A program made the translations under genes and the position numbers. DNA of 64,000 nucleotides from Vairimorpha necatrix (Eukaryota), in contig CP142734.1 in the NCBI GenBank assembly GCA_036630325.1, positions 558,001 to 622,000 on the forward strand, given 5' to 3'. The number at the start of each line of letters is the position of its first letter. The first letter of the stretch is position 1. Shown piece after piece: positions 28,402 to 62,808 of the stretch. The notes under the pieces are model-generated. The model ran no database searches and had not been told where the DNA came from. It worked only from the letters and a program-made list of their open reading frames with translations.

Positions 28402-29257
28402 ATAAAATCTTTATTTCAAAAAAAACGGAGAAATGAACTGGCATTCAGAAAAGTTATAGGAGATTCGAGAATATTATTTTTTAAAAATAAAAAACATTTT
28501 AATTGATAAATATAATTTTAAGATGCCAGAGCTAAGATACTAATGGTTAAAATAAAATCCGAATGAATTATTAATTGACAGGCGAGTTGATTGATGCATT
28601 TCGAAATTTGACAGGAGGGCAAGAAATTTGAGATTATAATAAGCTAATACCCGTTATTTAAAAATATGCAATATTTTATCTTTTTAATGATGTTTTCTAT
28701 AAAAAGTATGGTTAAAGAACACGATAGGTTATAAATTTGGGGTCATGTCGGCTTTGGCAGAAAAATTTCGATATCGGGGTTTTTTGTATTTTGTCCTCTT
28801 TTTTCCAAAACGTCGAAAATAAATTTAAGGAAGAGACAAAAAAATTTAATGCAACAAAATACTAATTAAATCATATCCATAAAAATTTGATACTTTCTAA
28901 ACGTTCTGATTTATATTGTACTTATGATAGTAGGTGTCTTTGTTCAATTTTTAACGTTTAGTAAAATAGCTAATTTGATTACAGAGAAGAATGAACATGA
29001 AATATTTTAAAATAAGAATTCTACATATTTCGCAACTGCATATAAAACAGTCAAAATTTCGGTTACTTGTTAATTCTGTTTAAAAGAACTTAAACCTTTT
29101 TAGAACGTGTAATTATTTAATTTTAATTAAAATTGTACATTTTTATTAGTTTATAGTTTGGAAAAAAAAATTGTAGAATGTTGACATTAGACAAAATATG
29201 AGGTTAAACAGTATTCTTTAATTATTGCCCATCTTCATGAATTCGAAGATGTTTTTA

Positions 29258-30838
29258 CAGGGTTTTGCATTTTTTTAGTCCAACTTTTGCATTTTTAAAG
29301 TCCAACTTTTGCATTTTTTATAGTCCAACTTTTGCATTTTTTATAGTCCAACTTTTGCATTTTTATAGTCCAACTTTTGCATTTTTATAGTCCAACTTTT
29401 GCATTTTTATAGTCCAACTTTTGCATTTTTATAGTCCAACTTTTGCATTTTTATAGTCCAACTTTTGCATTTTTATAGTCCATTTTTTGAAAAAAAACCA
29501 AGATTTGATAAAAAATCAAAAATCAATAGAATTATGCAAAAAATATATACAAACTCATTTAATTAGATAAACTCGTTTTTCTGCCTTGCCATTTCTAACC
29601 ATCTTAACATATTAGTGTAGAATCCATTACACGAAAGGCTGAAATCATCGTTCAGCACTTGTTCCAAATCCGTTTCAACAGCATTATTTGAGTTCCTTAT
29701 AGCACAAAACCTTGATTTTATCATAGAAAAAAACTCTTTAATTGGATTAAGCTGTGGGGAATACGGAGGCAAAAAAACATAAGATATGCCTAATTCTCTT
29801 AGCTTTCCTAAAACTTCTCTTGAATGATGAAATTTAGCATTATCCATGATTAAAATCTTTTGAGGATTTCTTTGGAAAAATTCTACAAGATGTCCTTCAA
29901 TAAATTCGACAAATAGAGCAGAATTATATGCGCCCCTTTTCATTTCGTATGCTATAATATTCGATTTTGAAATTACGCAAAGACAACTTAAATTTTTGCC
30001 TCGATTTGCAGGGACTGTTTTAAATGCTTTTTTATTTTTATATGAAAACCCATAATGCCTTGTGGTATGAGCATTAAATCCAGTTTCATCCAAAAAAATC
30101 AAATTTTCTAGTGAATATCCTGATATTTCCATAGCATATTCTGCTCTTTTATCAATTTTGTCCTGCGAATTACGCTCTGCAGGAATTAGAGACAGTCTTT
30201 TTCTTGTAATATTTAGATATTTCAACTTTCTCGAAATAGTTGACAAAGACATTGAAACATTTGCTATTGTATAAAGTTCTTCTTTGATTTCACTTAGAGT
30301 CTTGTCATTACTACGTGCAATGACGTTTTTAAGCACAATGTCGATAGGCTTTAAAACTCTATGAGCTTAAACTTTAGAACGATTTGTTGTTATTGTAGAA
30401 ACAATGGATTCTTCCTCTAACATTTTCCTATGGATCCTCCAAATTGTTTTATAACTTAAATCTAATGTTGTAGCAATATCTTTTAGGGTCAAGTTTTCGT
30501 TTTTTATATGTCTTTCAATGAGCTTTAAGACATCAGGAGTGACCGAAGATCTCGCTTTTCTAGGCATTAGGGGGTTTTTTTTTTCAAAAAAAAGGCCATT
30601 GAAATGCAAAAGTTGGACTATAAAAATGCAAAAGTTGGACTATAAAAATGCAAAAGTTGGACTATAAAAATGCAAAAGTTGGACTATAAAAATGCAAAAG
30701 TTGGACTATAAAAATGCAAAAGTTGGACTATAAAAATGCAAAAGTTGGACTATAAAAATGCAAAAGTTGGACTATAAAAAATGCAAAAGTTGGACTATAA
30801 AAAATGCAAAAGTTGGACTAAAAAAATGCAAAACCCTG
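29258..30838 (-). mobile_element. Tc1/IS630-like (DD34E) DNA transposon with long repeat-built TIRs
   Basis: Termini cagggttttgc / gcaaaaccctg flanked by TA. TIRs are built from a 22-23 bp unit tagtccaacttttgcattttta (9 copies left, 10 right). Confidence 0.95.
29563..30567 (-). pseudogene. Tc1/IS630 transposase with one in-frame stop and a catalytic E-to-K change
   Basis: HTH ORF (MPRK.. from 30567) and DDE ORF are in the same frame, separated by TAA at 30367-30369. Motifs FLDETG, IMDNAKFH and PYSPQLNPIKE, with K at the position of the DD34E glutamate. Confidence 0.88.
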
Positions 30839-30847
30839 TAAATTTAA

Positions 30848-32926
30848 TGTTATATATTTAGATATTTTGACCCCTCATTACGATAAATAAATACATGGGG
30901 GCCCAACCTAATGATGAGTTGACAAGAGTTGACTGTGGACAAGAGTTCAGAAATCATAGTGAGTTTGAGAGGATAATGTATGATTTAAGATTAGAGGAAA
31001 TGGAAGAGAGAAGTCTGCAGAAGAGGAAGTGAAGATTTGAAAAATTTTATTGTTTTGAATGTTCCGATTGAAGGAGGAGTCGAAGAAATAAGAAAAAAGT
31101 TGATTGAAGAGAAAGAAAGGAAGAAAATGGAAGTGAGAAGAGAAGTAGAGATAAGGAACATGATATTGATGATTACGGAAACAGTTAAGAAAGCTATGGA
31201 AGCGAAATGTGCAGAAAGAACTGGATTTAAGAGAAGGCTTTTTAGATGTTATGAGTGTGGCCGAACAGGACATATTTTTAGAAATTGCCAATATAATAGG
31301 TTTAATAAAAGTGATTCCAAGTATTTAGTTTCTAAAAGGTCAGCGATAGATCATGAAGAATGTTTAAGTGAGGATAATTATAAGAAGGGTAAAAAAGAGC
31401 AGGAATAGACGAGAAGCAGGGAGATTATAGATGAGAGAGTTGAATATATGGGATTAGATGGATTGAGACGGAAGTATTATGAGGTATTTTCGGACGAAGA
31501 GGAGGAAATTAAATATTTTAAGTTGGAAAAATGCCGAATTAAAACCGAAGAGGGAAAGGTCGTAAAGAAGAAAGGACAAATGGTTGAACAAGCGCTTATT
31601 GCGGACACAGTAGAACACATTAAGAGTTTAGAAAGAGGATAAATAATTAGAAGATCAGTGTCGGAATGGCGGAACCCAGTAAGGGCGCTTAGGAAGCCAA
31701 ATGGAAAGATAAGACTGGTAAGGAACTTAATGGCTTTAAATGATATAGTTGATAAGGATCCGTATGAATTGGCACCAATTAGAGGTGTAATCGAGGAAGG
31801 CAGAGATCAAGGTTTTTTACTGTGATAGATATTAAAGACAGTTTTTACCACATTGAGATTTGCGAAGAGGATAAACATAAAACAGCATTTGAATTCAATG
31901 GGAGAGTTTACGAGTGGAATAGTATGGTAATGGGGTTTAAGAACTCGCCCCAAATATTACAAAGAACAATGAATACGATTTTTGACGACCTGTTAGGAGA
32001 AGGAATAGAGGTGTATATGGATGATGTAGTAATTCACGCAAAAACGAAAAGAAAGCACGATGAGCTGCTAAAAGAAGTTTTAAAACGATTTAAGAAAAAT
32101 AACATGAAAATAAATATTAGCAGATACAATTCTGTAAAAAGGAAGTAAAGCTATTAGGGGCGACACTAAATGGAGAGGGTTCTCGGGCGTGCGAAATTAA
32201 AAAGAATGAAGCGAAAGAATACCCAGCGCCAGCAAATGTATCAGAATTAAAAAGATTTTTGGGATAAACTGGATGGTTTAGAAGTTTTATTAAAGATTAC
32301 GCTAAGTTGACATACCATTTAACAAATGCGCTTAAGGGAAATGGGAATAACTTCAAGTGGACGGAGGAAATGCAAAAAGAGTTTGAAAGTTTGAAAGAAT
32401 GTTTAAGAAATTTGAAAAGTCTAAAGATAGCTGATTATAGTAAAGGATTTTTGCTGCGAACAGATGCGAGCAACGTTGGCATGGGAGCCGTGTTATTGCA
32501 GAGAAACGGATTGAATGAGCGGGTTCCGGTACAGTGGGCTTCAAAAAAGTTTACTCCAACGGAAAGTAGATACTCGATATCAGAAAAAGGAATGTACGCA
32601 GTACTCTGGGGAATTAAAAAGTTTGAATACGAACTCAGAGGAAGAAAATTTAAGATTGAGACAGACCACAAGGCCTTGAGTAAAATTAGGAATAGGGCAA
32701 ATTTTAGTAATATTAGGATTAATAGGTGGATAGGGGAGATATAAAATTTGACTTTACTATAGAATACAGAAACCCGAAGATAATGGTTGTTGCAGATTCC
32801 TTGAGCCGCATATATACGGAAGAAGTTAGTAAGATGAAACAGATGGAAGATTGTGCAATTAAGCAACAGTAAGGTAAGTGGAAGAAACATGTAATCGTAG
32901 AGAATGGTTTGAATTATTGGAAATTT
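30848..32926 (+). mobile_element. Element H: 3'-truncated degenerate gypsy with a putative 48-bp 5' LTR (30848-30895) and no protease
   Basis: TG...CA block followed by PBS-like tgggggc. CCHC knuckle CYECGRTGHIFRNC, RT YMDD (31822-32148), RNase H TDAS (32307-32744). Cut at the Merlin boundary. Confidence 0.85.
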
Positions 32927-34135
32927 TGCGCTACTTCAATTCCTTGCCCCCCCTAAAAAAAACTATTTAGAAGAAATTTTATTTATTTCTACTTACAAAG
33001 TTCTAAAATTTTTATATAAGCACAACTATGATCATCATTATTAGAATGATTGATATTTCTTTTTTTCCAAGTAAATTCATTTAGAAATAAATTAATCCTA
33101 TGCCTTTTGAGCCCACTTCTCGATCTATATTCATTCTTCAAATGGGACCACAAATTTACTATATTATTTGTGTGGTCTCCTTCTGCATTTTTAAATCCAA
33201 GCGAATGATTTATTATGTAATGTTCACTCCCAAAATTTCTAGAGGCTGGAGGGTATGAAGGGTATCCATCAGTAATTACAATAGAGCCACGTTTTACTCT
33301 GCGTCTAAAAAGGTCTTCAATAGTACTAGATTGTCGATTAGGTAGCAATTCAAGAACAAATTCTCTACAATTACCTTCTACTATGCCGCCTATAATCCAT
33401 TGAATTCCAGGCATGGAATCCAAAGTTGAAGAAGGATCAGATACAATTACACCGTTGCATATGGAGGTTTCATCAAATTGTACACAAACAGAAGTTCCTC
33501 CAATTTGGTAGCTATCATCGCTTTTAGAAGCAATGATTTCCATCACTGTATCCTTGATTTTAATATATGAATTTTTTACATATTTTGCAAAGAACTATTG
33601 CTTGGTAAGTAGTATAATTAAATACCCAGTAATAGAAAGCTCTAAGGATTTTGTGAAATAGAACGCTTATTCCTTTAAACATCGTACCATTTTTAAGTGA
33701 GCTCTTCGAACTACACTTTTTATTAACACAACGATAAGCTTTACCGTCAATGTAGCCGGAACATCCACTATTGTTCATAAGAACAGTTCGTTCTGATGTC
33801 TTACAATGTCTGCAAGCAATCGATCTTTTTAGAAGACCATTATCTAAAAAAAAATTGCTGCAACATAGTTCCTAAAGCACGCATCTTCGCAGATATTTAG
33901 CTCTCGAATAGCTTCCTGCAGATTCCTAATTAAGGGGTAAAAAAATTAAAATTTTTTAACCCCTTAATGAGGAATCTGAAGGAGGCATAAAAAAATTAAA
34001 TCGACAAAAAATACCTTAACTTCATTTTCTTGCCCCCCTCAAAAAAAAAATGTTTAGATTTGAAAAAAAACACGATTTTGTATCTTTTCATTGACGTTTT
34101 TTTTAGGGGGGGGGGTAAGAAAATGAAGTAGCGCC
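32927..34135 (-). mobile_element. Merlin transposon with disrupted transposase and no TSD
   Basis: TIRs (g)gcgctacttca.tt..tt.ccccccc. ORF 32989-33546 has QFDET, VITDGYPSY, INHS and HTNNI..LW. N-terminal cysteine-rich fragment at 33560-33778. Confidence 0.92.
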
Positions 34136-37722: not shown

Positions 37723-40066
37723 ACCCCGTAGAGAAATAAATAATTAAATACTTAGACATTAAAAAAAAATTTATTTAATGTCGTAGCCGATCAAATACTG
37801 ACCAATCATATTCGTACAAATGGACAGATTTGATTGGCTACAAAAAGTATTTAAAAACATTTCCAAAAGGAGGTGGAAAATAAGAATAAAGTTATTGACA
37901 TGGCGACAACGATAAACAATGTCAGCTATTACACAGGAGAGACCGAGGAGGACATTGACGCCTGGTTAAGAGACATCATGCTGCTAGGTAAAGTATCCAG
38001 CTGGGCCGAAAAGCAGTACAAAATAGCCATCATTAGTAAACTTATAGGAAAGGGTTTATCTTGGGCTATCCAAACATTAGGAGGGAAAACAGAATCAATG
38101 AAATGAAAGAGATAATTACTGGTTTGAAGAAGAGATTTAGCTCATCCAGGAATAATGACATAACTTTAACCAGATTCTTAGCATTAACAGTCCCAGAGAC
38201 TAGAGAAGATTATTCACAGATGTTGCAGGAAGCAACGTGATATTTGAGCAGGCGCTTATCAACCTTGATGCGTTATGCCAAATGATAATCAATAAATCGC
38301 CTATAGAGATCAAAGCTCTATTATATCAGACCGCCACTATAGTTTAGACTTGGCAGGAATTCATACAAAAGGCCGAAGAAATACCTTGGATTCCATATTC
38401 GGATAAGATGCAAGCTAGGACTGGGATCCACAGCAACACGGGCAAAGGGCCTTACTTTACAAATAGTCACGAGAGAAGACGCAAAGAAAACAGAACTTAC
38501 GAAAAATCACCGAGATATAACAATAAACATTGCACACTTCATGGAGAATGCAATCACTACTCAAGGGATTGCAAAGTGCTAACCGATATCATCGCTATGG
38601 AGAGAAACAATCTAAAAAGAAAAGGTATTAACGCGCTAGAGGATTATAAAGCGAAGAAGAAACGACTATAAATAAAGAAAATGAATTTTACTTGCACCGT
38701 TTAAAAAATAATTCTAATCCGTTTTTTGTTCAAAGCCGTATGTTTAATAAAAATATAAAAGCTTTATTGGATACTGGTGCCGATGTTTCTGCTATAGATT
38801 ACAATGAAATCCCACTGGAAGAACGGGATAAGATCATAAAATATAACGGGGTAGTAAGAGGCATAGGTAAAGAAATTTTAAAAGCAGAAGGATACTTAAA
38901 AGACTGTACAATCGAAATTCCCGGCAAACGCGTGAACTTCTCCCATAATAATTAGAGACAATAAGTCGTTATAATAGAAGCAAACGTAATATGTAGAACT
39001 TAAAACTAATTCTAGACATTTTAAACGCTCCAAATCGTAGAATAAATCAAAAATCTAATTTATCGGAACACTCAGAAGAAAATAGAGTCTTAAAAAGTTT
39101 GAAGACGTATTTAAATCCGAAATTGGAGACTATAATCTCTTCACTGCGAGAAAACATCGAATACTGACAAACAGTACTAAGATCATTTGTCAAAGAAATG
39201 GAAGAATCCCAATAGCACAAGAGGAAGCTGTCAACGACGAAATAAGCAAACTATTAAAGCTTGGCATACTAAATGTTGTATAACCACATGTTTCTAGAGT
39301 GACCAATCAATAAGGAAACGTCAAGCAGTTTCAAAACACGCCGATATATAACAAAGGCTAATGGTCCATTATGAAACATTCAAAGGTGGTTGGTGGACCA
39401 CAACTATAAATAGCAAAATTATGACGTAGACACGCATCCATGAACAGAAAATCAAACAGACATTTTTTGCCTAACAATAAACAAACAAAAACACCTAACA
39501 ATAAAACAATTAAAAATACTAAAACTAATTCTATAAGCGTGCTGGAACATTTTTACCAGCACGGATACGTCAGATTGAATTCAATAGACAAAGAAGTATC
39601 CACAAGAACGAAAAATATTGACAAAAATAAAAACCCCACAATCACTGACCTTTGAAGTAAATATAGAAGGATTATCAAATACATTAAAACAGCATATACC
39701 CACCATAGACGATGTCACGGGCGTTGACATGTGCAGCTGGCTAAAACAATTTGAAGAACTAAAACAAAATAACAAATGGACAAAAAACATAACAACACTT
39801 ATGCTCAAATAGCTATTAAAGGATGCAAGAATACCTAGTGAAGAAAATACAAAGGAATGGAAAGATCTAAAAGGATTTTTATTAAAACTTGTTTGATTAC
39901 CAACAGAGGAGAGATTGTATCTCAGGAGAATAGAAAAAACCTATCAAATCAATTTTAAAATTATTAAGGAATATTATACATCAATTAAGAAAAACCTCGA
40001 TATCTACAAAATCATAGCCAATCTAACAGAGCAAGAATATCAACGGAAGTTTGATTCGGTATTTTA

Positions 40067-43000
40067 TGTAGGGTTTAGAACCCTTAATAAATAAATGGTT
40101 AACATGGCGAACATAAGGATGAACAGGGAAACAAGAGAGTCCCGTAGTCAAGAGGCTAGAACATTAGAGAAAGAGGCAATTAGGATAGATAAGAGACTAA
40201 AGTTAATATTGAAAGTTGAGAAAGTTGAGTGGAAAGATGTTATGGATTTGGCATCTGCGATTTTGCAGGATTATATTTTTGAAAATTTTTGTGACGGAAG
40301 GAGCAGTTGGGAGGAAATTTATAAAGGCTTACAAAAAGGAGCAGAATTTGAGAGAGAGTCAGAAGAAAGACAAGAAATGATTAAAGAGATTATGGATAAA
40401 GTGTTGAAAGAGTTTAGGGAAGAAAGAAAAGAAAATCTTAGGATGTATAGGAAAAGAAGAGAAATCAGAGAAACTACAAAATGTTTTATATGTAAGAAAG
40501 AAGGGCATTACGCTAGAGAATGTCATGAAAGTGTAGCTGGTAGGGAAAAATATAAAATTAAAAAGGAACAAGTTTTACAGAAAGAACCAATTATCAACAA
40601 TGAAGGGAAAAGATGTAAAACAGTAAATAAGTTAGAAAATTTAATTGAAAAGTATCCGGAAGTATTTAAAGAATCAGAAGAAAAGATAAAATATCTCACA
40701 GGAGAGAAGTGTCCAATAAATACTAAGCAAGGTGAAAAGGTTGTGAAAAGAGGGCAGAATGTGCCATACTACCTTAGGGTGAAATTTGAGGAGTACTTGA
40801 ATAAGTTGGAAAATAGAGGGGTTATAAGACGTTCCAAAAGTGAGTGGAGGAGTCCAATAAGAGCACTTGAAAAACCAAATGGGGACGTAAGATTGGTAAG
40901 CAATTTGATGGCGTTAAACGATTTGGTTGACAAGGACCCGTACTCATTACCGTTAATTAAGGATATTATGAGAGCCACACAGGGGTCAAAAGTATTTACG
41001 GCAATCGACTTAAAAGAAGGGTTTTATCATATTGAGATTGAGGAGCACCATAAGCACAAAACAGCATTTGAAGTGAATGGTCGAGTATACGAATGGAATA
41101 GTATGGTTATGGGGTTTAAGAATTCGCCCCATATAATGCAGAGAGTAATGAACAGAGTTTTAGATGAATTCAGAGGTAAAGGCGTGGAAGTATATATGGA
41201 TGATATAGTTATTCATGGTAAAGACGTAAGAGTGCATGACGAGTTACTAGAGAGGGTAATTAAAAAGTTTAAAGAGTGTGGGTTGAGAATAAACCAAACA
41301 AAGATACAATACAAAAAAGATGAGGTGATGTTGCTGGGAGTAACAATTAATGGGGAGGTCATGGGACCGAATGAGATTAAAAAGCAGGAGACATTGGAAT
41401 ATAGAAAACCTGAGAATGTTAGAGAGTTAAGAAGATTTTTAGGACTAACTGGTTGGTTTAGAGACTTTATTCCCAACTATGCGTATAGAACAGTAAGGCT
41501 TACTGAGGCTTTAAAGAAAGATGTTAAGTGGAATTGGACGGAGGATATGGAAAGAGCTTTTGAGGATATGAAGCAAGGCTTGAGAGATATGAAAAAGTTG
41601 AAGATTCCGGACGGAAAAAAGCTATTTAGAGTAAGAACTGATGCGTGTGATACGGGGATCGGAGCAATTCTATTACAAGAAAATAAAGAGGGTGAGTGGA
41701 TTCCGATACAATGGGCATCGAAAATGTTGACTCCTACCGAGCGAAGATATACGATAAGTGAGAAGGAGATGTTGGCGGTGTTTTTTGGAATAAAGAAGTT
41801 TGAAAGTGATTTGAGAGGAAGGAAATTTCATTTGATGACGGATCATAAAGCATTAGCAGAGATCAGAAATAAGCCATACTTCAATAATAACAGAATAAAC
41901 AGATGGGTAGAACAGATACAAGAGTTTGACTTTACAATAGAGTATGTGAAAGGGGAGTTGATGACAGATGCAGATGCGTTAAGCAGGCAGTATGATCAGG
42001 TAGAAGTTTCGGATGAACAAAAAGAAAAGGACAACAAGAGAAAAGAAGTGATCGAAAAACAAATTTTGGGAAAAAAGCAGAAACATATTAAAGAAAAGGA
42101 CGGTAAACAGTATTGGGAATTTTCCACAGGTGAGGTGAAAGAGATATTGAGCCTAGATAGTAGAGAACATGAAATAACAAGAGTACATGAGGAGTTAAAC
42201 CATAGAGGTGTCAAAGGCACTAATTATAACATTAAACAAAGATGGTATTGGCCTGGTATGAAAGATCATATTAATAAGGTAATTAAGAATTGTGAAATAT
42301 GTGGGATTAACAATAGGAAAAACACAGGAGGATGTGATTTCGTAGTAACTAGAAAGAAATTGGAGAAAGTGGCGTTGGATTTAATGGACATAGGTGGAGA
42401 GAATAGGTATGTGTTACTGGGTATTGATTACTTTACTAGAAGGTTGTGGGTTCGAATTTGAGATGTAAAGAGAGTAGTGAAGTTATAGAGGTATTACAAA
42501 AGTGGATAAGGGAAGATGGATTTCCAGAGGAATATGTGACAGACAACGGAAAAGAGTTTGTAAGTAATAGATTTAAAGAATGGTGTAGTATTAATGATAT
42601 TAAACATAGGAAAGTGGGCTTAGAAGCTCATAGGAGTAATGGTAGAATCGAGAGATGCATCAGAACTATAAGAGAGACATTGATAAAGCAAAATGATGGG
42701 AATATTTCTGAAAAGATAGAAAGAGCAATCAAAGGATATAATAATACACTACATACAGCAATAAAATGTACGCCGATGGAAGCGTGGAGAGATCAAACTG
42801 CTGAAGTTATAATTGAAAATGATGAAAATGGAAAATATGCTGATCGGTTCAAGAGAAGACACAGAGAGACATTTACAGTAGGCCAAGAGGTAAGAATCGC
42901 TAGGAGAGAAAATTTAGGTACACGTGCGAAAACAGACAAGGGAAGATTCACGGGTCGCGGAAGGATCGTAGCTATAAGTGAAAATGATTCATATATTGTG

Positions 43001-43140
43001 AGACTACTGGATGGTAAAATTGTTAAAAAAAGGCATTATGATTTGAAAGAGATAAGGAAGAGTTGTTTAGAAGATGGAGAGACTACCCGTCTGGAGGGGG
43101 GATGTAGGGTTTAGAACCCTTAATAAATAAATGGTTAACA
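40067..43140 (+). mobile_element. Element C: 3074-bp gypsy with identical 38-bp LTRs and no protease
   Basis: tgtagggtttagaacccttaataaataaatggttaaca at 40067-40104 and 43103-43140; TSD tttta; PBS-like tggcgaac; PPT ggagggggga. Confidence 0.96.
40095..43114 (+). CDS. Element C Gag-RT-RNaseH-integrase polyprotein with one frameshift at ~42450
   Basis: ORFs 40095-42461 and 42446-43114: CFICKKEGHYAREC, YMDD, TDAC, HHCC, DLMD / TDNG / GRIER. Confidence 0.93.
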
Positions 43141-45208
43141 TTTTATAACGGATTAGGTAGATATTCTTACGGAAAAATCGTCGAAATAGCCTTTGACACC
43201 TTTTATGGATGCTATGAGTTTTTAAACGACGTAGAGCAAAAACTGACAGCTAGATTTCAAGAACTAAAGAATAAGCCCAAGGAATCTCAAATACATACAA
43301 GATCATATGAAAACAAATTTTGCAGATTTCATAAATGGGGACTCCATTCGACAGAAGAATGCAAGAAGTACGATAAGGATTTTTACATTCAACAGAAAGA
43401 TAAAGAGCAACACTTAAATATAATAAAAGAACCTCAAACAGAATTGTCAAAAATTGCAATAACGAGAACTATTCAAGAATAAAAAATCGAATTCTTACTC
43501 GACACGGGAGCAAAGAAAAATTATATTAGTCAAGCCAAAGCAAAAAGCTTAAATTTACAACCCATTCAAGGCAAGGGAATAACAAATATATACGGGAACT
43601 GAAGTAAAGAAACAATCAGTCAAGTTGTAAATATCAAATTTAAAATTAGGAACATTAAACAAGATTTCAATGAGGAAGTATACATAGTAGAACCCCTCCC
43701 TGAAGACATAATACTGGGAGCAAGATTCATCATCAATAATGACATGATTTTAGACTTCAAGAACAAAGCCATAATACTTAACAACCAAATTACATCAGTG
43801 GCAAATAACCAGGAATTGGAACCAATAGAAATGGAAAGCATTTTATATTCTAGACTCTGTTGCATAAGAGAAATCGACCAGCTTGAGGAAACAACACTTA
43901 AAAACAATATAACAAGATACATAAAAGAAAACGGGTTTAACCAGATTAGTATCGACGAGAAAAGCAGAAAGTTAACATCATTTACAATTTTAGGACAGCA
44001 GTACAGATATACAAGAATACCGTTCGGTTTAAAGTCAGGCCCCGAGATTTTTCAAATGACGATAAACAAGAAATTATAAGGGGTAAGGAATTGTGCAGTT
44101 TATATTTACGACATAGTAGTTTACACAAATACCTTAGAGGAGCTTATACGCACAGTGAATGAGGTATTGAACGCACTAAGGGGATTTAACGTAAAAATCA
44201 ATTTTGAGAAAAGCACATTTTTAACGCAAAAACTAAAATTACTAGGCAACGTTATTGAAAACGGACAAATAAAAATTGACAACAAAAACATTGAAAAAAT
44301 ACTAAATTCAAATTCTGTACCAAAAAACAAAAGATATTCAGAAATTATTAGGAATTATAGCATGTATAGAAACTTTATACAAGATGTCAGAAGAAAACTA
44401 TCATGTATCACCAAATTATTATGAAAAGAAACAACTATAAATTGGGAACAAAAACATATCGAAGCATTAGAACAAATAAAATAAGAAATCGCAACTAAAG
44501 CGACACTAAAACTACAAGATTTTAAAAAAGCATTTCACATAGAGTTCGATGCATCAATGGAAGGAATGGGGACGGTTCTATTCCAGGACCATGGAGTAAT
44601 AAATTACTACAGTAAAAAATTTAACGAAACAGACAAAACTATTCAATCATGGAAAAAGAAATGTACGCGATCGTAAAAATCCTAGATTTTTATAGAAACA
44701 TCATGCTTGGTTTCCACGTAATTGTACATACCGACAGCCAGAATTGTATTTTTGAGAATAAACAGGTTTCGAAAAGGTTGGAGAGATGGAAGATGATTCT
44801 AAATGAATTCAACATTACTATTAAAAATCCCCGGAGACGAAAATAAGATCGCAGACAGCTTATCAAGATGCTCAGAATAATTCAAACAGAATGAACTACG
44901 GGCAACGAAAATCACCAGAGAGAACTGAAAAAAAAATAACATAATAAATAAGTACATGCAGGCATATCTACACTATATTATAACATAAAAGACTATTACA
45001 AGATACCCTATCTCTCAAGAATAATAAAAGAGACAATAAATAAGTGCGAAAAATGCATAAGATGCAAAAACAACAAAAAATCCGATAAAACAAAATCTAA
45101 TATACAGGCACGCAGTTCATTTCAAATCTTGTGTACAGATATTTTCGGCCCATTCGAGTTAACAGACTACGTACATAATGAGATACAAAACAAAGGATTT
45201 TTTCTAAC

Positions 45209-48200
45209 TGTTGAGTGAAATAATAATTATTTATAGCCCCTATTCTAGAATAAATGTTTATGGTGGAGAATATGAAAACAGAGATTAGTAGTGAAAATAT
45301 CTTGCAGGAGCTACAAAGAGCTTCTTTACTTTCCAGTTTTAATAAATTATCAAATGAGGAAAAAATTGATTATTTTATTCATAAAGCCAACATTGAGATA
45401 CTAGATTGGCATAGTAAGTTAATGAAGGAGAAACGGAAATGTTCCTTAACATTTGAAATGTGGAAAGAGTTGGCAGAAACGGAATTTGACTGCGGTACTG
45501 GATTGTACGAATTATATACTTTAAAACAAAAAGAAAACCAAAGTATTGTGGAATTTATCAAAGATGTAGAAAAGAAATGTCTAAAGGAAAATATCAGAAA
45601 TACGGATAAAAGGAAGATAATAAGAAATGGAATCCTATCAAGATATAAGGCTATAAAAATGGTATTAACGGGGCAATATGAAATTAATAAAGAATTCCTT
45701 GAAATAATTGATGAAATGGAAAAGGAAAATAACGATATAACAAAAATAAGACAACCTGCCTCCAATAACATCAACAAAAGATATTCATGTTATTTTTGCC
45801 ACAAGGATGGGCATATCGCTAAAGACTGTTTTGCGAAGAAGAAAATAACTGATGGTAAACAACTACAGTATAAAAGGATAAATGAGATCCACCAAGAAGG
45901 CGGAATGTTGGATGCAAACTTTATTAACAATAAAGAAGATTTAATATATGTTTATAATGAAAAAATTAATGTAACTTTTGACTCGGGTTCTTACTATAAT
46001 TTTATAAGTAAAAAGGCTGCTTCTGAACTAACTTTAAAAATTTATAGAAGTACAGAGGAAATATATTTTTTAACATGTTTAGAAGAAAGATTCGGGATTA
46101 CAGAATATGTGATATTAGATTTCTCTTATGGTGGTAAAAGTTATCGTTCTAAATTTTTTATATTCCCTAAGGTGGAAAAATTTAAAATACTTGTAGGAAA
46201 AAAGACATTACAAGAAATATTGAAAAGGGTGTCTAGCAATAGAATTTGTGAAATAAATACGATAAAAGGAGAAAAAATTGTTGAAAAGGTCTATACACTA
46301 CCAAAAAAGTTAGAAGAAGGAGTGGAAAAATCTATCAAAGAACTACTAAGGAAAAATTACATAAGAAAATCAAAATCAACGTGGTTGAATAATTTAAGAC
46401 CAGTAATTAAACCAGATGGTTCTATAAGAGTTACTACAAATTTAGTTTCGTTAAACAAATTGGTAGAGCTAGATAATTACTCCTTACCACACATTGATAA
46501 GCTTTTATACGGGCTTCGTGGAAAAAAATATTTTAGTAAATTGGATTTAAAAGATGCATTTTTTTGTATAGAATTAGCGGAAAAGGATAGATATAAGACC
46601 GCTTTTAGATTTAAGCACCTATTATATGAATGGAACGTTATGCCAATGGGGTTTAAAAATGCTCCGGCAATTTTTCAAAGATTTATAGATGATGTTTTAC
46701 AAGAAGAAATAGGGAAAAGTTGCTTCGTGTATGTGGATGACATACTGGTTTTTGGAGAAAACGAGGAAGAACATGATTTTAATTATGAGAAGATCATAAC
46801 AAAGCTTAAAAGCTATAACTTAGGTATTAATGAGGATAAAACAATATATAAGGTTAAAGAACTTACCTTTTTGGGACATTTAATAGCATATAACGAAATT
46901 AAGCCAAAAATTACACGGGACCAAGCAATTAACGATATGAAAAGACCAATCAATAAAAAATCACTGCAAGAATTTCTGGGACTTATTAATTATTATAGAA
47001 AATTTATTTCTAATTGTTCAAAAATCGGAGGATGTTTATATGATCTTACAAAAAATGATATTCAATTTAATTGGGGGAAGGAACAGGATGCTGCTTTTAA
47101 TACATTAAAGAAAATTGTATTGTCGAGCAGTGTGCTTAAACAGCCAGATTTTAGTAAACCTTACATATTAGAAACGGATGCATGTGACTCTGGTCTGGGA
47201 GCGATCTTGTCACAAGAAAATGAAGGGCATGTGTACCCAATCGCGTACGCTTCTAGAAGATTGGTTCCAGCGGAAAGAAATTACAGTATCAGCGAGAAAG
47301 AATGCTTGGGTGTCCTATGGGGAATGGAAAATTTTAGATATTTTTTATATGGAAATGAGTTTAAAGTAATAACTGATCACAAAGCTCTAGAGGTCCTAAA
47401 TAAAGGCGAAATAAAATCGTTACGTATACAAAGGTGGCTTGATAAATTGAGTGAGTATAATTACACGATCGAGTACAAAAGGGGGACAGATATTCCTCAC
47501 GTCGATTGTTTGTCAAGATCTTATCTTAATGAGTTAAATACGGATGAAATAAATATGATTGAATTTAGCGAAGAAGAAAAAAGGTCTATCATAAGGAATA
47601 AACATATAGAATTAGTTCACAGAGGATCAAAAGTTATTGAAAATGAATTAAGGAAAAAATATCATTGGAAAGATATGTCGCATATGGTAAAAACGGAAAT
47701 TAATAAATGTCTAAGATGTAAGATGTACAATCCACAAAGAGGAAAAAAATTTATATTTGTGAAAGCATACGAACCTGGCGAAAAGGTAGCTGCCGATATT
47801 ATAGGACCAATCAATGGAAGCTATATAATTACGGCGATCGACTATTTTACAAGGAAAGCATGGGCTAAAGTCATTACTACTAGAGAGAGTAATAAGCTAG
47901 TGAAATTTTTTGATGAAGTTTATAATGACATAAAGATTAAAATACTAATTCTTGATCAGTCAAAAGAAAATTTGAGTATTGAGGTAAAACAATGGGCAAC
48001 GAGAAATAATGTTCAAATTCATTATATTTCCCCTTTTCATCACCAATCAAACGGAAGAATAGAAAGATTTAATAGGACAATACAGGAAGGTATATATAAA
48101 GATAATAGTTTTGGAAATTTGAAGACAAAAACTAAGCGTGTACTAGATGTATACAATAATGTTAGACACTCCGCTCTTGGCATGTCGCCAGACGAAGCAT

Positions 48201-48542
48201 GTAATCCTAAGAGAGCTCAGGAGATTAAACTAAAACAATTCGAAGAAATCGTAAAATTCAACCAACGACAGAAGAAAAGAGGAGCTGAATTTATTTTTAA
48301 AGAGGGAGATAGAGTTATAATTAGAAGAGAAACCGATTTAACAAAGGGAAAACCTAGATTTGAATCGCAAGGTATAATTATTAATATTTTAGGAAATAAT
48401 TCTTATAACGTTAAGGTCCATAATAAAACTATAAAGCGACATGGCTCGCAACTTAAGCTAATAGTAGAGGATTATTTTGAATGAGGGGGATGTTGAGTGA
48501 AATAATAATTATTTATAGCCCCTATTCTAGAATAAATGTTTA
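45209..48542 (+). mobile_element. Element D: intact 3334-bp gypsy with identical 52-bp TG...TA LTRs
   Basis: LTRs 45209-45260 and 48491-48542; TSD ctaac; PBS tggtggagaa (tRNA-Ala-like 3' complement); G-rich PPT. Confidence 0.96.
45254..48484 (+). CDS. Element D Gag-PR-RT-RNaseH-IN polyprotein (1076 aa, uninterrupted)
   Basis: CYFCHKDGHIAKDC, FDSGS, YVDD, ETDAC, HHCC, ADIIGP / LDQ / GRIER. Confidence 0.97.
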   Translation: MFMVENMKTEISSENILQELQRASLLSSFNKLSNEEKIDYFIHKANIEILDWHSKLMKEKRKCSLTFEMWKELAETEFDCGTGLYELYTLKQKENQSIVEFIKDVEKKCLKENIRNTDKRKIIRNGILSRYKAIKMVLTGQYEINKEFLEIIDEMEKENNDITKIRQPASNNINKRYSCYFCHKDGHIAKDCFAKKKITDGKQLQYKRINEIHQEGGMLDANFINNKEDLIYVYNEKINVTFDSGSYYNFISKKAASELTLKIYRSTEEIYFLTCLEERFGITEYVILDFSYGGKSYRSKFFIFPKVEKFKILVGKKTLQEILKRVSSNRICEINTIKGEKIVEKVYTLPKKLEEGVEKSIKELLRKNYIRKSKSTWLNNLRPVIKPDGSIRVTTNLVSLNKLVELDNYSLPHIDKLLYGLRGKKYFSKLDLKDAFFCIELAEKDRYKTAFRFKHLLYEWNVMPMGFKNAPAIFQRFIDDVLQEEIGKSCFVYVDDILVFGENEEEHDFNYEKIITKLKSYNLGINEDKTIYKVKELTFLGHLIAYNEIKPKITRDQAINDMKRPINKKSLQEFLGLINYYRKFISNCSKIGGCLYDLTKNDIQFNWGKEQDAAFNTLKKIVLSSSVLKQPDFSKPYILETDACDSGLGAILSQENEGHVYPIAYASRRLVPAERNYSISEKECLGVLWGMENFRYFLYGNEFKVITDHKALEVLNKGEIKSLRIQRWLDKLSEYNYTIEYKRGTDIPHVDCLSRSYLNELNTDEINMIEFSEEEKRSIIRNKHIELVHRGSKVIENELRKKYHWKDMSHMVKTEINKCLRCKMYNPQRGKKFIFVKAYEPGEKVAADIIGPINGSYIITAIDYFTRKAWAKVITTRESNKLVKFFDEVYNDIKIKILILDQSKENLSIEVKQWATRNNVQIHYISPFHHQSNGRIERFNRTIQEGIYKDNSFGNLKTKTKRVLDVYNNVRHSALGMSPDEACNPKRAQEIKLKQFEEIVKFNQRQKKRGAEFIFKEGDRVIIRRETDLTKGKPRFESQGIIINILGNNSYNVKVHNKTIKRHGSQLKLIVEDYFE

Positions 48543-51500: not shown

Positions 51501-54500
51501 TAGAGATAAAAGAAAAGCTTAAGGTTGAAGAAAACGTTTTAATATATAGAGATTATCCGGGGGGTGGTAAATTGGAAGCTAAATGGATACCAGGCTACAT
51601 CATAATTCAAATTTTAAACGAAGATGCGTTTCTAGTAAAAAGAAAAAATACTTTGGGGGAACTGAGAGTCAATAAAAGTCATATTAAAAAGGATACGTCA
51701 AAGACTAATTAAGGGGGTGTCGTAGCCGATCAAAAAATGATTAATCATATTCGTACTGTTGAATATTTATAAATTTCTAATTTATGACCCCTAAGATATC
51801 TTTAATAAACATGGTGGAGAATATGAACAATAAAATAACAAAAAACAACATAACTCATGAGATAAAAAGAGCAGAGGCTCTTAGTAGATGGAAAAAAAGA
51901 CTGACGAAGACAAAATGGATGACTTTATCAGTAGGTTTGACGAAACCGTTTTAGACGGGCATCTAGAGAAATTTGGGAATAAAAGGAAAACAAGTTTTAG
52001 CTATGAAGATTGGAGAAGAGCAGCACTGGAGTATTTTTGTACGAAAATTTCTATAGTGGACCTGTGCTCCAAGAAACAAAAGGATAATGAGTCTGTTTCT
52101 GTATTTATAAAAGAAACGATTAAATTGTGTGAAGATTTAAATGTTGAAGAAAAGGATAGAAGGAAAATTTTAAAAAACGGCATCAACCCCCGATATAAAC
52201 TCATAAAAATGTTTTTATCCACTAAATATGAGACGGATGAGGAATTCTACGGAACTATTATAGAAATGAAGAAAGAAGCCGATTTGGCCTTTTCTTTCAA
52301 AAACTTAAGCTTAAAAGAAACTCCAAGAAAAACTTTAACCTGCTTCATATGTAAAAAGCCAGACATGTTTCTACAAATTGCTATTTTCGGAATAGAAACA
52401 AAGACACTGGTGCAAGTAAGCAGGTACATGAGGTAGTAGCCAATACTGAAGAGAAATTAGAAGAAAAGTCTGCATTTTACGAAAATTAAAATAACCACGT
52501 CTATGTTAAAAGTAATAAGGTGCCTGTTATTTTCTATATCGGTTCTAGTTATAATTTCATTTCACATTGTGCAGTTGGAGAATTAAAATTACAGATATTA
52601 AGGAGGAAAATGCCATTGAGCTTTTTTACGTGTTTAGATGAAAAGTTTCAAATAAGAGAGATAGTAGAGTTAGAATTTAAATATATGGACAAGATATATA
52701 AAACAAAACTCTTTATTTTGCCTAGGGTCGCCAAATTTAAAATATTATTCGGAAAACAGGAGCTGATAAAAATTTTTGCAAAACCAAAAAACAGAATATG
52801 TCAAATTAAAACTAAACCAGGCGAAAAGGTCGTAGAAAGGACGTATGGACTGCCACAAAAATTAACAGTGGGCATAGATGCTGAAATAGAAAAGTTATTA
52901 GAGAAAAAATATATTCGGAAATCCAGTCCTATGTGGTTAAACAATCTTAGACCAGTTAAGAAGCCAGATGGATCGGTTTGGGTGGCAACCAATTTGATTG
53001 CACTCAATAAGTTAGTAGATTTGTACAGATACTTGCTTCCGAGCATAGAAAGAATCTTACATAATTTAAAAGATCAAAAATATTTTTCTAAGTTGGATTT
53101 AAAAGATGGGGGTTTCAGATAGAATTAGCAGAAGATGACAGACACAAAACAGCTTTTAGACATAAGCATCTTTTATATGAATGGAATGTAATGCCAATGG
53201 GCTTTAAAAATTCGCCGGCCATATTTCAACGGGTTATGGATGATGTTTTACAAGATGATATTGGGAAAAGGTGTTTCATTTATGTTGACGATATTTTAGT
53301 TTTTGGAACAACTGAAGAAATCCATGACAACAATTTTAGGATTATAAAAGAACGATTAAAGAAGAATGCTTTACAATTAAATGAAGATAAAACTATTTAT
53401 AAAAAGAAATCAGTTGAATTTTTAGGACATACGATAGAATACAATAAAATTAAACCCAAAAGGGAACCTAGCCAAGGTATTGATGAAATCAACCCGCCAC
53501 ATGATATTAGATCATTGCAAGAATTTCTTGGTTTTATCAATTTTAACAGGAAATTTATTCCCGGGTGTTCAAGTATTGCAGGATGCTTGTATGATTTACT
53601 TAAAAAGAATAGAAAGTTCAGTTGGGGCGAACATGAAGATAAGCCTTTCAATAAGCTTAAAACCATCATAAAATCAAATATAGAATTATACCAACCTGAA
53701 TATACTAAACCTTTTATACTAGAAACAGACGCGTGCAATTCGGGAGTTGGTGCAATTCTCTCACAAAAACAAGGCGAAACAATTTATCCTATTTCGTATG
53801 CTTCAAGAAGACTTTTACCGGCTAAGATAAATTAATATTTTAGTGAAAAGGAATGCTTAGCAGTGTTATGGGGAATGGAAAATTTTAAATATTTCTTATA
53901 CGGGAATGTATTTGGAGTAATAACGGACCATAAAGCTTTGGAAGTGTTGAACAAAGAAAAAATAGGCTCTCAACGAATACAAAGATGGCTTGACAGACTT
54001 AGCCAATATAATTTCACAGTAAAATATAAAAGGGGTGTCGAGATGGCACATGTGGACTACATATCTCGTCTATACCAAAAGGAAGAGCAAGTCGTTAATG
54101 AAATTCAAGACTTAAATGATGACACAAAAAGGAAACTTATTAAAGATAAACACGAAAATTTAGTTCATCGTGGAGCAAAAATAGTAGCCAAAGAGCTTAA
54201 AAGGGAATATACGTGGGATATTATTGATAAATTAGTTAAAGAAGAGTTGAAAAAGTGTATAAGATGTAAAATGTATAATCCAAAAAGAGGAAAAGCCTTT
54301 TTGTTCGTTAAATCGTTTTATACAGGAGAAAAGGTCGCTATAGATATTATAGGACCAATAAATAAACAATATATAATAACAGGAATTGATTAATTAGTAG
54401 AAAGGGGTTTGGAAAAGTTATTACCACTAGAGATAGTCAGAAAATTGTAGATTTTATAAGGAAATTAACAAACAAATAACAATAAAAGAGTTGATAATGG

Positions 54501-54786: not shown

Positions 54787-57700
54787 TGGCGTATTTACCT
54801 GGAATTGTGCCAGTGGCAAGAAAGCATTCAATAATGCTACGGTTATGTGCACCGTGAATTCCCAAGGTAGGTGTAAATGTATTTGAATAGTGTTTATTGT
54901 TATTGGCGTCATGGGCCTGAGCTGAAGTGCGGCTGTTGTTGTTCTTAGGCATTCTCATTCTTTTTAAGTGATGAATTTCGTTATTTATATTTGTGTGTAA
55001 CCAATTAGAAATTAGTGTTTCAGATCTGTCCACTAACAATTAGAGATGCTTGACGTGTATCAAAGCACATTAGCGTTTCATCGTCTATTGGTCACCATAA
55101 ACATGTGGTATGAGATATTATACCACATACTGCCAACTCCAACTAAAATTTCAAGTTTCGGACATGCGTCCATGATTCGTCATCTTTTAAGCGAACCCAT
55201 TTACCTATGCTTCCCACTTCTTCAACTATTTGTCTTGTTCCATATTTCCGATCGAGTTTTCCTGCTTTTAAATTTCTTTTGTAGACAATGTCTCCCATGT
55301 TGAACTTAGAAGTATACGCTACAGCGTTTGGGGTTTTCGTTATTGTTTGCTGTTTGGCGTCTAAATCGTAGAAGTCCCTGCCATATGCTATAAGATAAGG
55401 CGAGGCTTTAATCCCTCGATTAAAGTTGATATTTAATATATTTTCTGCTTCTTTAACAGTCTCGTAGATGTCTCGGAATTTATTTATGGAAAGCGTGAAG
55501 GCAATAGTTTGGTTCAAGCGTTCGGATATCCCATTTGATTTGGGTGTGTATGTCGGTATTAGAATGTGATTTATTCCAGTATTAGCTAGATACTCTTTGA
55601 AACCTGCGGAGATGTATTGTCGTCCGTTATCCGATATTAAATGCTTAGGCCTGTCTCTCGTCTTAATCCATGCTTCTATAGAATCGATTAATTCTTGAGT
55701 TTTAATCGTCTTAAAGAATATTAACATTACTTCTCTAGAATATATATCTGATATCGTAAGTATATATCCTATCTTCTCCTCAGAGTTCGGGGAAGGAGTA
55801 TGATACTTGAATGGTCCGAAGATATCTGATGATATGCGCTCGTATAATCTAGATGAATCCATCTTCACCGTATTTTGATGACTATTGTTAATTATCTTGA
55901 ATTTTCTGCATACAGAACAACTTTTTACTACCCAAGATATCCTTTGTAGGGCGTTTTTTACGTAAATGTATTTTTTAATGTTGTTGTAGAGTGTAGTGAC
56001 TCCTCGGTGACCTGATATGTCATGTATGCTTTTTAGGAAAGATTTGATTTTGTCATTCCTGATAACCAGTTGGCCTCTATCGTTCCTGAGTAATACGCCG
56101 TTGTTTGACGTGCATGAAGTTTTAACGACATTGTCGTACTGTATCTTGAGAGGCATGATCTGTAAAAGTAGACAACGCGATAATGTGTCTGCTACTGTGT
56201 TATCCTTTCCTTTGATATGGAAGATCTTATGATTAAATTTATTCATGATCAGTTTCCATCTGTTAATCCTCGTGGTTAGGCTTTTATTTTCAAACGAACA
56301 GTTGTTACTGTCAGTATGTATCTCTACATAACATCCCCGAATGATGCTTTCAAAATGAATTGCGGAGAGAAGAATGGCTAGATACTCTTTTTCGACTATA
56401 GTGTAATTAAGTTCAGAACCTGCCAGTTTCTTGCTATAATAACCTATGATTATGTCTTCTTGTAGAAGTACGCTACCTATTCCTTTTTCTGAAGCGTCTG
56501 TTTGAAGTGTAAATTTCCTTCTATAATCTGGGAATCCTAGCTTGACTACTTTAAGCTCTTCAATAATAGGGTTAATCTCTGTTTTTGTAGCTTCTGGTAA
56601 CTTATAATGTTTTTTATCTTCCATGAGTATGGGTAAGCAAGTGCTTTCAGCTAATATTTCATCAAGAATTTCCTCAGATGTAACTTCAACCCCAATAAAT
56701 GGGATAGTATGTCCATTTCCTAAGGTAATAATTTTCTTTCTTAAGTTTACTACTGCTTCGTTAGCATATAAAAATTCATATCCCAAGATAATATCTTCTG
56801 GTAAACGCTGTAAAACATAAAATGTGATATCATAGTCTTTATCCTTAATACGTATTTTAGTTTCGACGGCTCGACTAGTGGTTTCTTTAGTACCACATCC
56901 AAATATCATAGTTAGAGGTTTAGTTTCAATTGTGTTCAGCTTTAAGGACTTTAACAGTTTTTCGTGAATATAATTGCAAGATGCACCCGTGTCAACAAAT
57001 AACTGTAGGTTAGTCCCATTTAATTCTCCTTGAATTTTTATCCCTTCATGATTGTCGACTTTAAGTTCAGTGATAATCATGTTTTTGACATCTTCTGATT
57101 GTGAGGTTTTATGAAGGGAACAATCTTTAGTGTTGTGAAACTTCGAGTGATGGTATTTACACCACTTCTTATTAGTAAAGGCGTATTTAGTCTTGTTCGC
57201 ACCCGTTGTCTGGGTTATTAAGCCTTGTTTGGTCTCTGCGGACTGGGATAATATGCTTTCTTCCAGTTCTATTAAAAATTGGATAATTTCTTGAAATGGA
57301 GCCGTTTTGAGTCTTTGATCGGTAATCTTGATAGTGGTATATCTTCCCAAACCTTTGAAAAATATTTCTTCTTGTTTTCTTTCCACTTCCATTCTTGAAA
57401 GATCGTTGACATGAATGTAGCCTTCTAATCCTTTAGAAATTGTTTCCATATACTCGTTAATGGAAAAATGATCAGTTTGCCTGATATTGTCAATTTTTTG
57501 CGAGAGAATCCTGTGTTGGGTCTTTGGATACAGTATGTCTAGAAGTTCTTTTCTCAGTGCCTTGTAACTGTTCCTAGTAAGTTTATCCTTATAAGTAGAA
57601 TCATAGATTAGACTATGGTAAATTTGACCGCTTTGTGTGTCATTTTACTTGTTATACTCAGAAAGAGTTTCAAACTCTTTGAGACCTGCTGTAGTGAGAT

Positions 57701-58182
57701 CTGATTTGATATTAAATATCTTGAGTATATAGTCTTGGATTGGCACGTCTGTACCTTCAACAGTTCTTTTAAATTCCGCGTGATGATGTTTATCTCCAGA
57801 TGTAACTGACTTTGTACCTTTATTGCCATTTGAGCTCAAAATGGCGTATTTACCTGGAATTGTGCCAGTGGCAAGAAAGCATTCAATAATGCTACGGTTA
57901 TGTGCACCGTGAATTCCCAAGGTAGGTGTAAATGTATTTGAATAGTGTTTATTGTTATTGGCGTCATGGGCCTGAGCTGAAGTGCGGCTGTTGTTGTTCT
58001 TAGGCATTCTCATTCTTTTTAAGTGATGAATTTCGTTATTTATATTTGTGTGTAACCAATTAGAAATTAGTGTTTCAGAACTGTCCACTAACAATTAGAG
58101 ATGCTTGACGTGTATCAAAGCACATTAGCGTTTCATCGTCTATTGGTCACCATAAACATGTGGTATGAGATATTATACCACA
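54787..58182 (-). mobile_element. Element F: 3396-bp RT-less LTR element with 341-bp LTRs
   Basis: LTRs 54787-55127 and 57842-58182 (one mismatch seen); TSD agtac; PPT-like gttggagttggcagta. Confidence 0.95.
55143..58013 (-). CDS. Element F Gag-PR-RNaseH-IN reading frame (no RT; one in-frame TAA at 57645-57647; 768-aa ORF 55143-57449)
   Basis: WCKYHHSKFHNTKDC knuckle, FVDTGA protease, then LQTDAS RNase H, HHCC and DIFGP / SDNG / GISER integrase. No YxDD. Confidence 0.88.
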
Positions 58183-61800: not shown

Positions 61801-62808
61801 AAATATAACAAAATTATTCTCTGTTTGTCTAAAAAACCATTGAAAACCTAAAAAACAAGACTAATAAATATACCACCAAACCTAGAATCTGTTTTAAACA
61901 ACATAAACTATGTATAAACATGTTTATCTTTGGCAAAAATTAAATATAATGACAAAAGAAAGCAATAGGTTAAAACATATCTTTACAAAATTAGACTTCT
62001 ATTTAACTCATAGTTTATTAGAAAACAATTAAATTGGTTCAAATAATATATTTTTTTATAAACTATGTTTAAATTAGATATTTCTATGACTATTTTTTTA
62101 CGCATGTAAATTTTTTTCTTTTCCTTTTAGCTCTGGACGCTTCGACTTTTAAAAAACAGGGCTAAAAATAAAAAATTCTGTATTTATATTGATAAGGGGG
62201 GATAAAGTGAAAATTGGCCCCATAGTCAAATTGCTTTTACTTCTTTTACATTGATTTCCACTTTTAGCATGCAAATAGTCCAAACTTTTATTTTCTTTAT
62301 TAACTTGATCTTTTTCATTTCCTTTAGGTTGAGAACACTTCCTAGCTATGAGTCCCATTTTACCACATACAAAACAATGTTGTTCTCGTCTTTTTTTTTT
62401 GAAAATGTCTTCCTGGCACTGCTACTTTCATGGCCAATTCTCCTTAAATCGCTCTTCTTAATTTTTCTTTCAAAACCTCCACCACATCTTCCAGTTATCT
62501 TCTCCTTGTTCTCATTCTCTTCCTCTTCAACAACTAATTTTCCGACTTCATCAATAATATCAGTCTAATTTATCATACTGAATAATTTTTTTATCAAAAA
62601 TAAAATCCTGAAGTTCAATACTTGATTGTATTATCTCCTGTTTCAGTGTCATTTATTTTACTTCTTCTACATTCTAATAATCGCTTCTACTCTCTTAGCT
62701 TCTTTGAATAATTTTTTGTTCTCTTAGACACGGGTCTCACTTTTTACCTTTTTTTAGCTTTTGTTTGCCATGTAAACCATCTATTTATTAGGGGTTATAA
62801 ATACCACA
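58886..62808 (-). mobile_element. Element G: degenerate relative of C with 38-bp LTRs
   Basis: LTRs 58886-58923 and 62771-62808; TSD agaaa; PBS-like tggcaaac. RT, RNase H and IN fragments at 59168-61099. Length is 3077 bp after removing the Merlin insert. Confidence 0.92.
61382..62219. mobile_element. Non-autonomous Merlin-like element (838 bp)
   Basis: TIRs gg...attttcactttatcccccc; 8-bp TSD ctatagtc / ccatagtc (7/8). No transposase motif recognised. Confidence 0.78.

Follow-up and report, generated by a model that had tools for sequence, protein, structure and literature searches.

The Nbr elements of Nosema bombycis are microsporidian Ty3/gypsy retrotransposons with a single polyprotein. 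Three groups of Ty3/gypsy elements specific to microsporidia, again with a single polyprotein, have been described (Parisot et al., 2014; PMC4202319), and the single-polyprotein point is repeated for microsporidian elements elsewhere (PMC13174016). The word 'protease' occurs neither in the main text nor in one supplement of PMC4202319, and the main text of PMC7313128 contains none of the terms protease, gypsy, LTR or gag. Tf1 and Tf2 of Schizosaccharomyces pombe (Metaviridae) also make one polypeptide for Gag and Pol; these elements are about 4.9 kb long with long terminal repeats (LTRs) of 349-358 bp, and their 1330-residue product is cut by their own protease. According to one source (PMC7175516), protease and reverse transcriptase (RT) are left fused in Tf2; the yeast elements used as models cleave Gag-Pol with their protease and are described as needing Gag in excess, which they obtain by frameshifting or, in single-frame Tf1 and Ty5, apparently by turnover of Pol. 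Ty3 of Saccharomyces cerevisiae uses a frameshift for Gag excess and has a two-lobe capsid and its own protease. At the other end of the range, TRIM, LARD, Morgane and BARE-2 are non-autonomous LTR elements in which Gag, Pol or both are missing or decayed. No description of a protease-less LTR clade was found in the literature searched, which included few subscription papers, and a prior mention is possible.

Here we describe such an element, C, from the microsporidian Vairimorpha necatrix. It occupies positions 40067-43140 (3074 bp) of the window, that is, of the whole 64,000-nucleotide stretch of DNA that was analysed (contig CP142734.1, positions 558,001 to 622,000), and all of its features lie on the plus strand. 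As the initial annotation had noticed, its two LTRs (40067-40104 and 43103-43140; 38 bp, TG...CA ends) are identical and flanked by a 5-bp target site duplication (TSD), TTTTA (40062-40066 and 43141-43145). Packed into the 5' LTR are a 6-bp hairpin, a CCC that may act as the microsporidian promoter motif, AATAAA, and the ATG (40095) with which the frame opens; the 3' LTR carries the stop codon and AATAAA. Since the frame starts in one LTR and ends at 43114 in the other, the primer binding site (40105-40117) and the polypurine tract (43093-43102) are themselves coding. The primer binding site matches the 3' end of host tRNA-Arg(TCG) at 12 of 13 letters in the window copy and at 13 of 13 in copy L031, in a comparison set of 48 tRNA genes taken from 40 of 63 listed stretches. 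Folding of the 5' end of the element was no better than that of shuffled sequences (z -0.63).

The single frame encodes a miniature Gag (40095-40481), a CCHC zinc knuckle (residues 130-143; 40482-40523), a charged spacer of 42 residues (144-185; 40524-40649) at the position held by the protease in relatives, RT followed by RNase H (40650-41927; RT entry helix KYPEVF at residue 186, YMDD at residue 367), and a charged helical link leading to an integrase with an H2C2 finger and core (41928-43114). Pfam models recognize the knuckle (129-144), RT (259-418), RNase H (481-611) and the integrase zinc finger and core, and the RT fold matches that of Ty3 RT (4ol8, E 3e-32). In the window copy, a single frameshift disrupts the integrase near 42,450 and leaves 40095-42461 uninterrupted; as assembled, this copy therefore cannot make the full protein. 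Element C thus has the direct TG...CA LTRs, short TSD, tRNA primer site, polypurine tract and RT-RNase H-integrase order of Ty3/gypsy elements and lacks an aspartic protease between Gag and RT. It descends from Ty3/gypsy and departs from the canonical form by the absence of the protease.

Set against the described systems, C resembles the groups of Parisot et al. (2014; PMC4202319) in domain order, in its one frame for Gag and Pol, in its microsporidian host and in the presence of Merlin-type transposons alongside, whereas a protease-less branch, LTRs of 38-49 bp and a shortened Gag are absent from the accessible portion of their description. Like Ty3, it has the RT fold, tRNA priming, a polypurine tract and a 5-bp TSD, and unlike Ty3 it has no frameshift for Gag excess and no protease, and probably not the two-lobe capsid. 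Compared with Tf1 and Tf2 it is shorter (3.07 kb), has far shorter LTRs (38 bp), and encodes a smaller polyprotein (1006 residues) without a protease.

The initial annotation had drawn attention to the short gap between knuckle and KYPEVF and to the lack of a D(S/T)G motif within it. Both observations hold: 42 residues separate C143 from residue 186, and inspection of the sequence between knuckle and RT reveals no D(S/T)G. The gap had also been called low-complexity, about 40 residues long; the length is right, and the composition is better described as charged, D/E/K/R making up 44% of the 62 residues that lead to the next RT anchor. Among Pfam matches of the C polyprotein with E values as high as 1, none is a protease family. 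We then used 28 protease stretches from retroelements of the genome to build a protease profile of our own, which gave 49-91 bits on eight of eight non-seed protease-bearing open reading frames (ORFs) of the genome; upstream of RT, it reached at most 3.4 bits in any row of the C clade. Nor did six-frame translations of 38 lineage loci yield a protease at E < 1 on either strand. AlphaFold was used to model residues 4-202 (37 rows, pLDDT 77, pTM 0.45) and the complete protein (32 rows, pLDDT 79, pTM 0.49). Both models place four helices, the knuckle, a short helix and a disordered stretch (149-177, pLDDT under 50) ahead of the RT entry helix; the spacer is predicted to be mostly disordered, and neither model contains beta strands at the protease position. 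A cryptic protease fold in the spacer, which had been named as a result that would overturn the proposal, was not found in these models, and a cryptic protease in the C lineage was rejected by all four approaches.

Spacer length varies across the lineage. The stretch from the knuckle to a fixed RT anchor was measured in 38 of 39 protease-less rows, the other one having no regular knuckle; it is 56-195 residues long, with a median of 84.5 and 44% charged residues, against 130-157 residues and 26-35% charged in eight rows of the D type, the protease-bearing relatives named after element D (below). Three of the 38 spacers are of protease length and two contain a D(S/T)G triplet (P0014 and P0033); none scores with our protease profile.

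Two further elements of the window are built in the same way, in agreement with the initial annotation. Element H (30995-32941, plus strand) is a decayed, diverged member of the C lineage (57-63% identity over RT and RNase H) in which the knuckle is followed by about 60 residues with one stop and then by KYYEVF, with no D(S/T)G (approximately 31246-31490). Element G (58925-62790, minus strand), also decayed, has a degenerate knuckle near 62370-62330 and continues with RYPEIF near 61360 beyond an insertion, the two sides of which together hold about 45 codons of spacer. The insertion is a non-coding element of about 840 bp with terminal inverted repeats (about 61380-62220) and a near-exact 8-bp flanking repeat; its end features suggest that it is Merlin-like. 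At least 32 other near-full-length copies of it, 89-92% identical, are present in the genome (40 of 99 candidates scored).

The neighbouring elements had been credited with a clear protease, and signals were indeed found: RVP at 38650-38955 (E 5.6e-6), Asp_protease_2 at 55143-57644 (E 9.5e-12) and RVP_2 at 52490-53122 (E 1.7e-4) by Pfam, and LLDTG read in the sequence of an element near 43495. In D (45199-48530, plus strand, approximate ends; frame 45254-48484), our short-LTR comparison element, the Pfam match is weak (E 0.026), though FDSG lies within a stretch of protease length. Between 38300 and 50700 lies a nested cluster, with C and D inside an older protease-bearing element whose Gag frame lies on both sides of C. 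Elsewhere in the window, a DDE-type transposase frame (29563-30366, minus strand) sits between long inverted arrays of a 22-bp unit (29226-30804), and two host-like frames that resemble each other by eye (18836-19312 and 20263-20877) have no Pfam match; from their look, they may be ricin-B-type lectin proteins of microsporidia.

The Gag of C is small, as had been claimed: about 125 residues precede the knuckle, and 143 are counted to its end. Four helices are predicted, the last of them very long (55 residues). The two capsid lobes are alike in fold. Language-model look-alikes of this Gag are retrotransposon Gags (0.87 and 0.90, to be taken as leads only), and its matches to the first part of sister Gags are weak (hhalign E 0.034 and 0.0085); residues 40-77 of P0031 and 40-77 of P0274, a pair picked by eye, align at E 8e-5. 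In structural comparison by VIA-align, all matches are helical bundles (best Z 6.1), and the C-lobe of Arc ranks 27th among unrelated ones with Z 5.1 (rmsd 3.1, 63 residues aligned); fold searches of PDB and BFVD with this Gag returned nothing at E < 0.001. These results establish neither a known fold nor a novel one. A second-lobe profile made from D-type Gag missed other Gags as well and is too insensitive to be informative. Taking these weak scores and the predicted fold together, the Gag of C probably keeps one capsid lobe, the N-terminal one. Basal protease-less rows have a longer Gag, and it is the crown group in which Gag is shortened.

Genome-wide, 81 sites match the LTR of family C when no more than two mismatches are allowed. 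Paired by eye, they make up 39 elements and leave three LTRs single; the distance within a pair is about 3.0 kb in 38 cases and 6.2 kb in one. Besides the window copy, the 20 copies with the best scores, a sample that favours young copies and was counted by eye, are all 3074-3076 bp long; 19 have an exact 5-bp TSD, 17 have identical LTRs, and ten encode a single 1006-residue frame, with one more encoding 1011 residues. No protease is present in any of the family copies fetched. These copies show that family C has spread recently by the ordinary LTR route, with tRNA primer site, polypurine tract, TG...CA ends and 5-bp TSD. The claim that C moved recently accordingly stands for the family, which has young copies in the genome, while the window copy itself is frameshifted. 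The insertion sites of L031-L050 are very A+T-rich, mostly with T-A beside the duplication on both sides (by eye), hinting at a symmetric target preference.

That intact copies have no stop or frameshift between Gag and RT bears on how a shell could be built. Pol might stay uncut while extra free Gag is supplied by a short or spliced transcript, early polyadenylation or recoding, and a shell might still form, much as single-frame Tf1 and Ty5 gain their Gag excess indirectly (PMC7175516); given the uninterrupted frames and the apparent lack of a second capsid lobe, we regard this as very unlikely.

Family C is not alone. At least five other families of the genome (L051, L058, L063, L066 and L067) are built like it, with LTRs of 48-49 bp and lengths of about 3.1-3.2 kb. 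Their primer sites match tRNA-Pro(AGG) over 13-14 letters, while C uses tRNA-Arg(TCG) and D uses tRNA-Ala; the primer has thus switched within the clade, and the first Gag residues are dictated by the primer site. The LTRs of D-type elements, too, are short (52 to about 87 bp), so LTR shrinkage preceded loss of the protease; a Met codon lies where their LTR meets the primer site. Several protease-bearing families (L071-L077, L084-L087 and L090) carry a short palindrome after the 5' LTR, for example TTGAATTCAA or TTTGAGCTCAAA; the two tested have no match to a tRNA 3' end, and these families possibly prime themselves or use another primer.

A protein search (8000 candidates) returned 136 matches, of which 120 were listed, and the top 44 of these have no protease domain. 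By their labels, protease-less matches come from Nosema granulosis, Enteropsectra breve and Vairimorpha necatrix, with a more distant member from Nematocida; one labelled Clostridium derives from a metagenome bin, and its label is probably wrong. Phylogenies were quick searches with SH-aLRT support, in which the reference elements are labelled database matches only. A first RT-RNase H tree was made with 112 rows, excluding the database rows past P0075 and 18 rows that were fragments or near-duplicates. In it, 51 rows, some of them N-terminally cut short and thus silent on the protease, form one branch (support 99) that is sister to the D-type branch (99), the two together having support 100. 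Searching 1.84 billion representatives with a profile brought in 146 further proteins, 16 of them nearest to the C clade by BLAST: seven lack a protease, six are too short to judge, and three (P0151, P0158 and P0211) have one. When 66 rows were analysed in a second tree, the three protease-bearing proteins grouped with P0206, which is truncated and has weak protease evidence, in a branch of their own (98) beside 32 protease-less rows; the latter need a single change of state (84), and the 29-row subgroup of C has support 99. The expectation that protease-less copies would fall into one clade is thus borne out, on one side of a branch supported at 99, or at 84 when the closer sister is included. 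A single loss of the protease is the simplest reading of these trees, and it was possibly lost twice. The protease-like domain of P0151 reads DPG where others have DTG or DSG and is possibly a dead protease en route to loss; two near-identical sequences are recorded for this protein. The 80 loci kept out of 540 from a metagenome scan are distant gypsy elements (24-36% identity), and no member of the C lineage was found in the viral contigs scanned.

On this sequence evidence, C is a member of an old microsporidian Ty3/gypsy lineage that has lost its protease and is still mobile; the lineage proposed from the window alone holds and extends to other microsporidia. Its nearest relatives on the RT tree, the D-type elements and the sister group P0151/P0158/P0211, differ from C in that the protease is kept and is preceded by INxI-like motifs, and in that Gag is longer and carries a major-homology-like motif. 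Among near-full-length rows of the lineage, YxDD is present in 32 of 33 and RNase H TDA and integrase H2C2 in 33 of 33, and the RT, RNase H and integrase motifs as a whole in 26-33 of 33. Their conservation across deep divergence shows that the element supplies these enzymes itself.

A close full-length relative with a protease, the other result named as able to overturn the proposal, was found neither in the genome and database searches nor in the trees. This bears on whether C could have arisen recently by deletion from a parent with a protease, or could be an artefact of assembly. Deletion derivatives do exist here: element F (54787-58141, minus strand; identical LTR stretches of 300 bp) has a longest frame of Gag-protease-RNase H-integrase from which RT is deleted in frame, and a full-length parent, L074, that is 97-98% identical. 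No such parent of C appears among 139 genome matches or the 120 listed database proteins, the nearest rows that have a protease fall outside a deep clade, coding capacity is kept with the catalytic motifs largely conserved, and a contig from a public run, possibly the window's own source, spans 40087-41497 with no gap. Both forms of this explanation are extremely improbable. C shares small size, a missing gene and, with TRIMs, short LTRs with the TRIM, LARD, Morgane and BARE-2 elements, but its clade has kept RT, RNase H and integrase open across deep divergence. A TRIM-like or deletion-type non-autonomous element was ruled out by these retained enzymes and by the lack of a near-identical parent.

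How the polyprotein works without a protease of its own was addressed through its junctions. INxI-like motifs mark cleavage sites in gypsy elements. In D-type rows, [IV][NH]x[IV] occurs just before the protease in seven of eight and just after RNase H in seven of eight; in protease-less rows it is found in none of 38 knuckle-to-RT stretches and, between RNase H and integrase, in one of 41. Since D-type rows served to pick the motif by eye and the rows are related, Fisher's P (7e-7) overstates the contrast, and the motif is no proven site. A looser motif would count VN[KR]L, which the C subgroup has just before RT. In the closest protease-bearing sister, INQI before the protease is kept and no such motif follows RNase H; together with DPG in one of its members, this suggests that the cuts were abandoned stepwise. 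In C, AlphaFold predicts a single helix (residues 633-664) running from RNase H into the integrase.

Three routes had been offered for such an element: an uncleaved polyprotein, a host protease, or protease borrowed from D-type elements. Our evidence is indirect; it favours the first, and the missing D-type junction motif disfavours the last. We lean towards a polyprotein that stays uncut and acts on its own RNA as a small ribonucleoprotein or loose assembly. One transcript would give one protein of about 1000 residues; its knuckle would bind the element's RNA and anneal the tRNA primer, the tethered RT-RNase H would make the DNA copy, and the tethered integrase would insert it, and the charged, disordered spacer would serve as a flexible tether. 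Because Gag and Pol would be made at a fixed 1:1 ratio and apparently one capsid lobe is left, a standard virus-like particle would be less likely than a small ribonucleoprotein or a loose assembly. The route to this state may have been stepwise, the sister group losing the RNase H/integrase motif, the basal rows still having a long Gag, and the crown group shortening it. Several points speak against an uncut product: VN[KR]L before RT in the C subgroup could be a cleavage site; yeast elements cleave Gag-Pol and are described as needing surplus Gag (PMC7175516); support for a single loss is limited to 84 and the assignment of the capsid lobe is weak; and each genomic copy has many intact protease-bearing elements around it (at least 146 matches over the cut-off), so that supply of a protease in trans is physically possible.

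Supply in trans raises the possibility that C is a partial parasite, with its own RT, RNase H and integrase, that relies on a protease-bearing element active in the same cell, of D type or another kind, to cut it or to package it alongside. Many intact protease-bearing ORFs share its genome, it is nested among protease-bearing elements in the window, its one-lobe Gag could join a helper's shell, and it outnumbers D (39 pairs against about eight close D matches), as helper parasites often do. We nevertheless consider this unlikely: the D-type junction motif is almost absent, the junction is poorly conserved in length and sequence across the clade, and the primer tRNA is unlike that of D (Arg or Pro versus Ala). 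Moreover, retroelement proteases mostly act inside their own particle, which also counts against dependence on a helper.

A host protease, or limited trimming by the proteasome, could instead cut the exposed charged spacer and free Gag from Pol. The spacer is predicted to be disordered and is rich in basic residues, and an enzyme of loose specificity would leave no conserved motif. As no Ddi1-like protease stands out (the best PF09668 match scores 38 bits among 115 candidates, and the top matches are retroelement frames), and as the RNase H/integrase link is predicted to be helical rather than open, host cleavage seems distinctly unlikely.

Returning to the uncut polyprotein, we tentatively extend the proposal, as a possibility short of an even one, to a self-sufficient LTR element that does without both proteolytic maturation and a standard capsid and whose LTRs of 38-49 bp would hold promoter, start, stop and poly(A) signal. 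If this is true, C would be a retrovirus-like element that works like the ribonucleoprotein of a LINE and has been kept across much of the microsporidian tree.

The consequences reach beyond this locus. LTR finders commonly work with a minimum LTR length of about 100 bp, and at such usual minimum lengths families like C will be missed. As a compact natural fusion of RT, RNase H and integrase, C would also be of use for structural work. The element protease and the Gag shell are regarded as core parts of LTR retrotransposons and retroviruses, and a lineage that lost the protease long ago, reduced its Gag and LTRs, and spreads even so makes the need for maturation and for a capsid in LTR-type reverse transcription and integration testable. 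For the microsporidia themselves, the C lineage shows that the parasite's mobile elements, too, have been subject to genome reduction.
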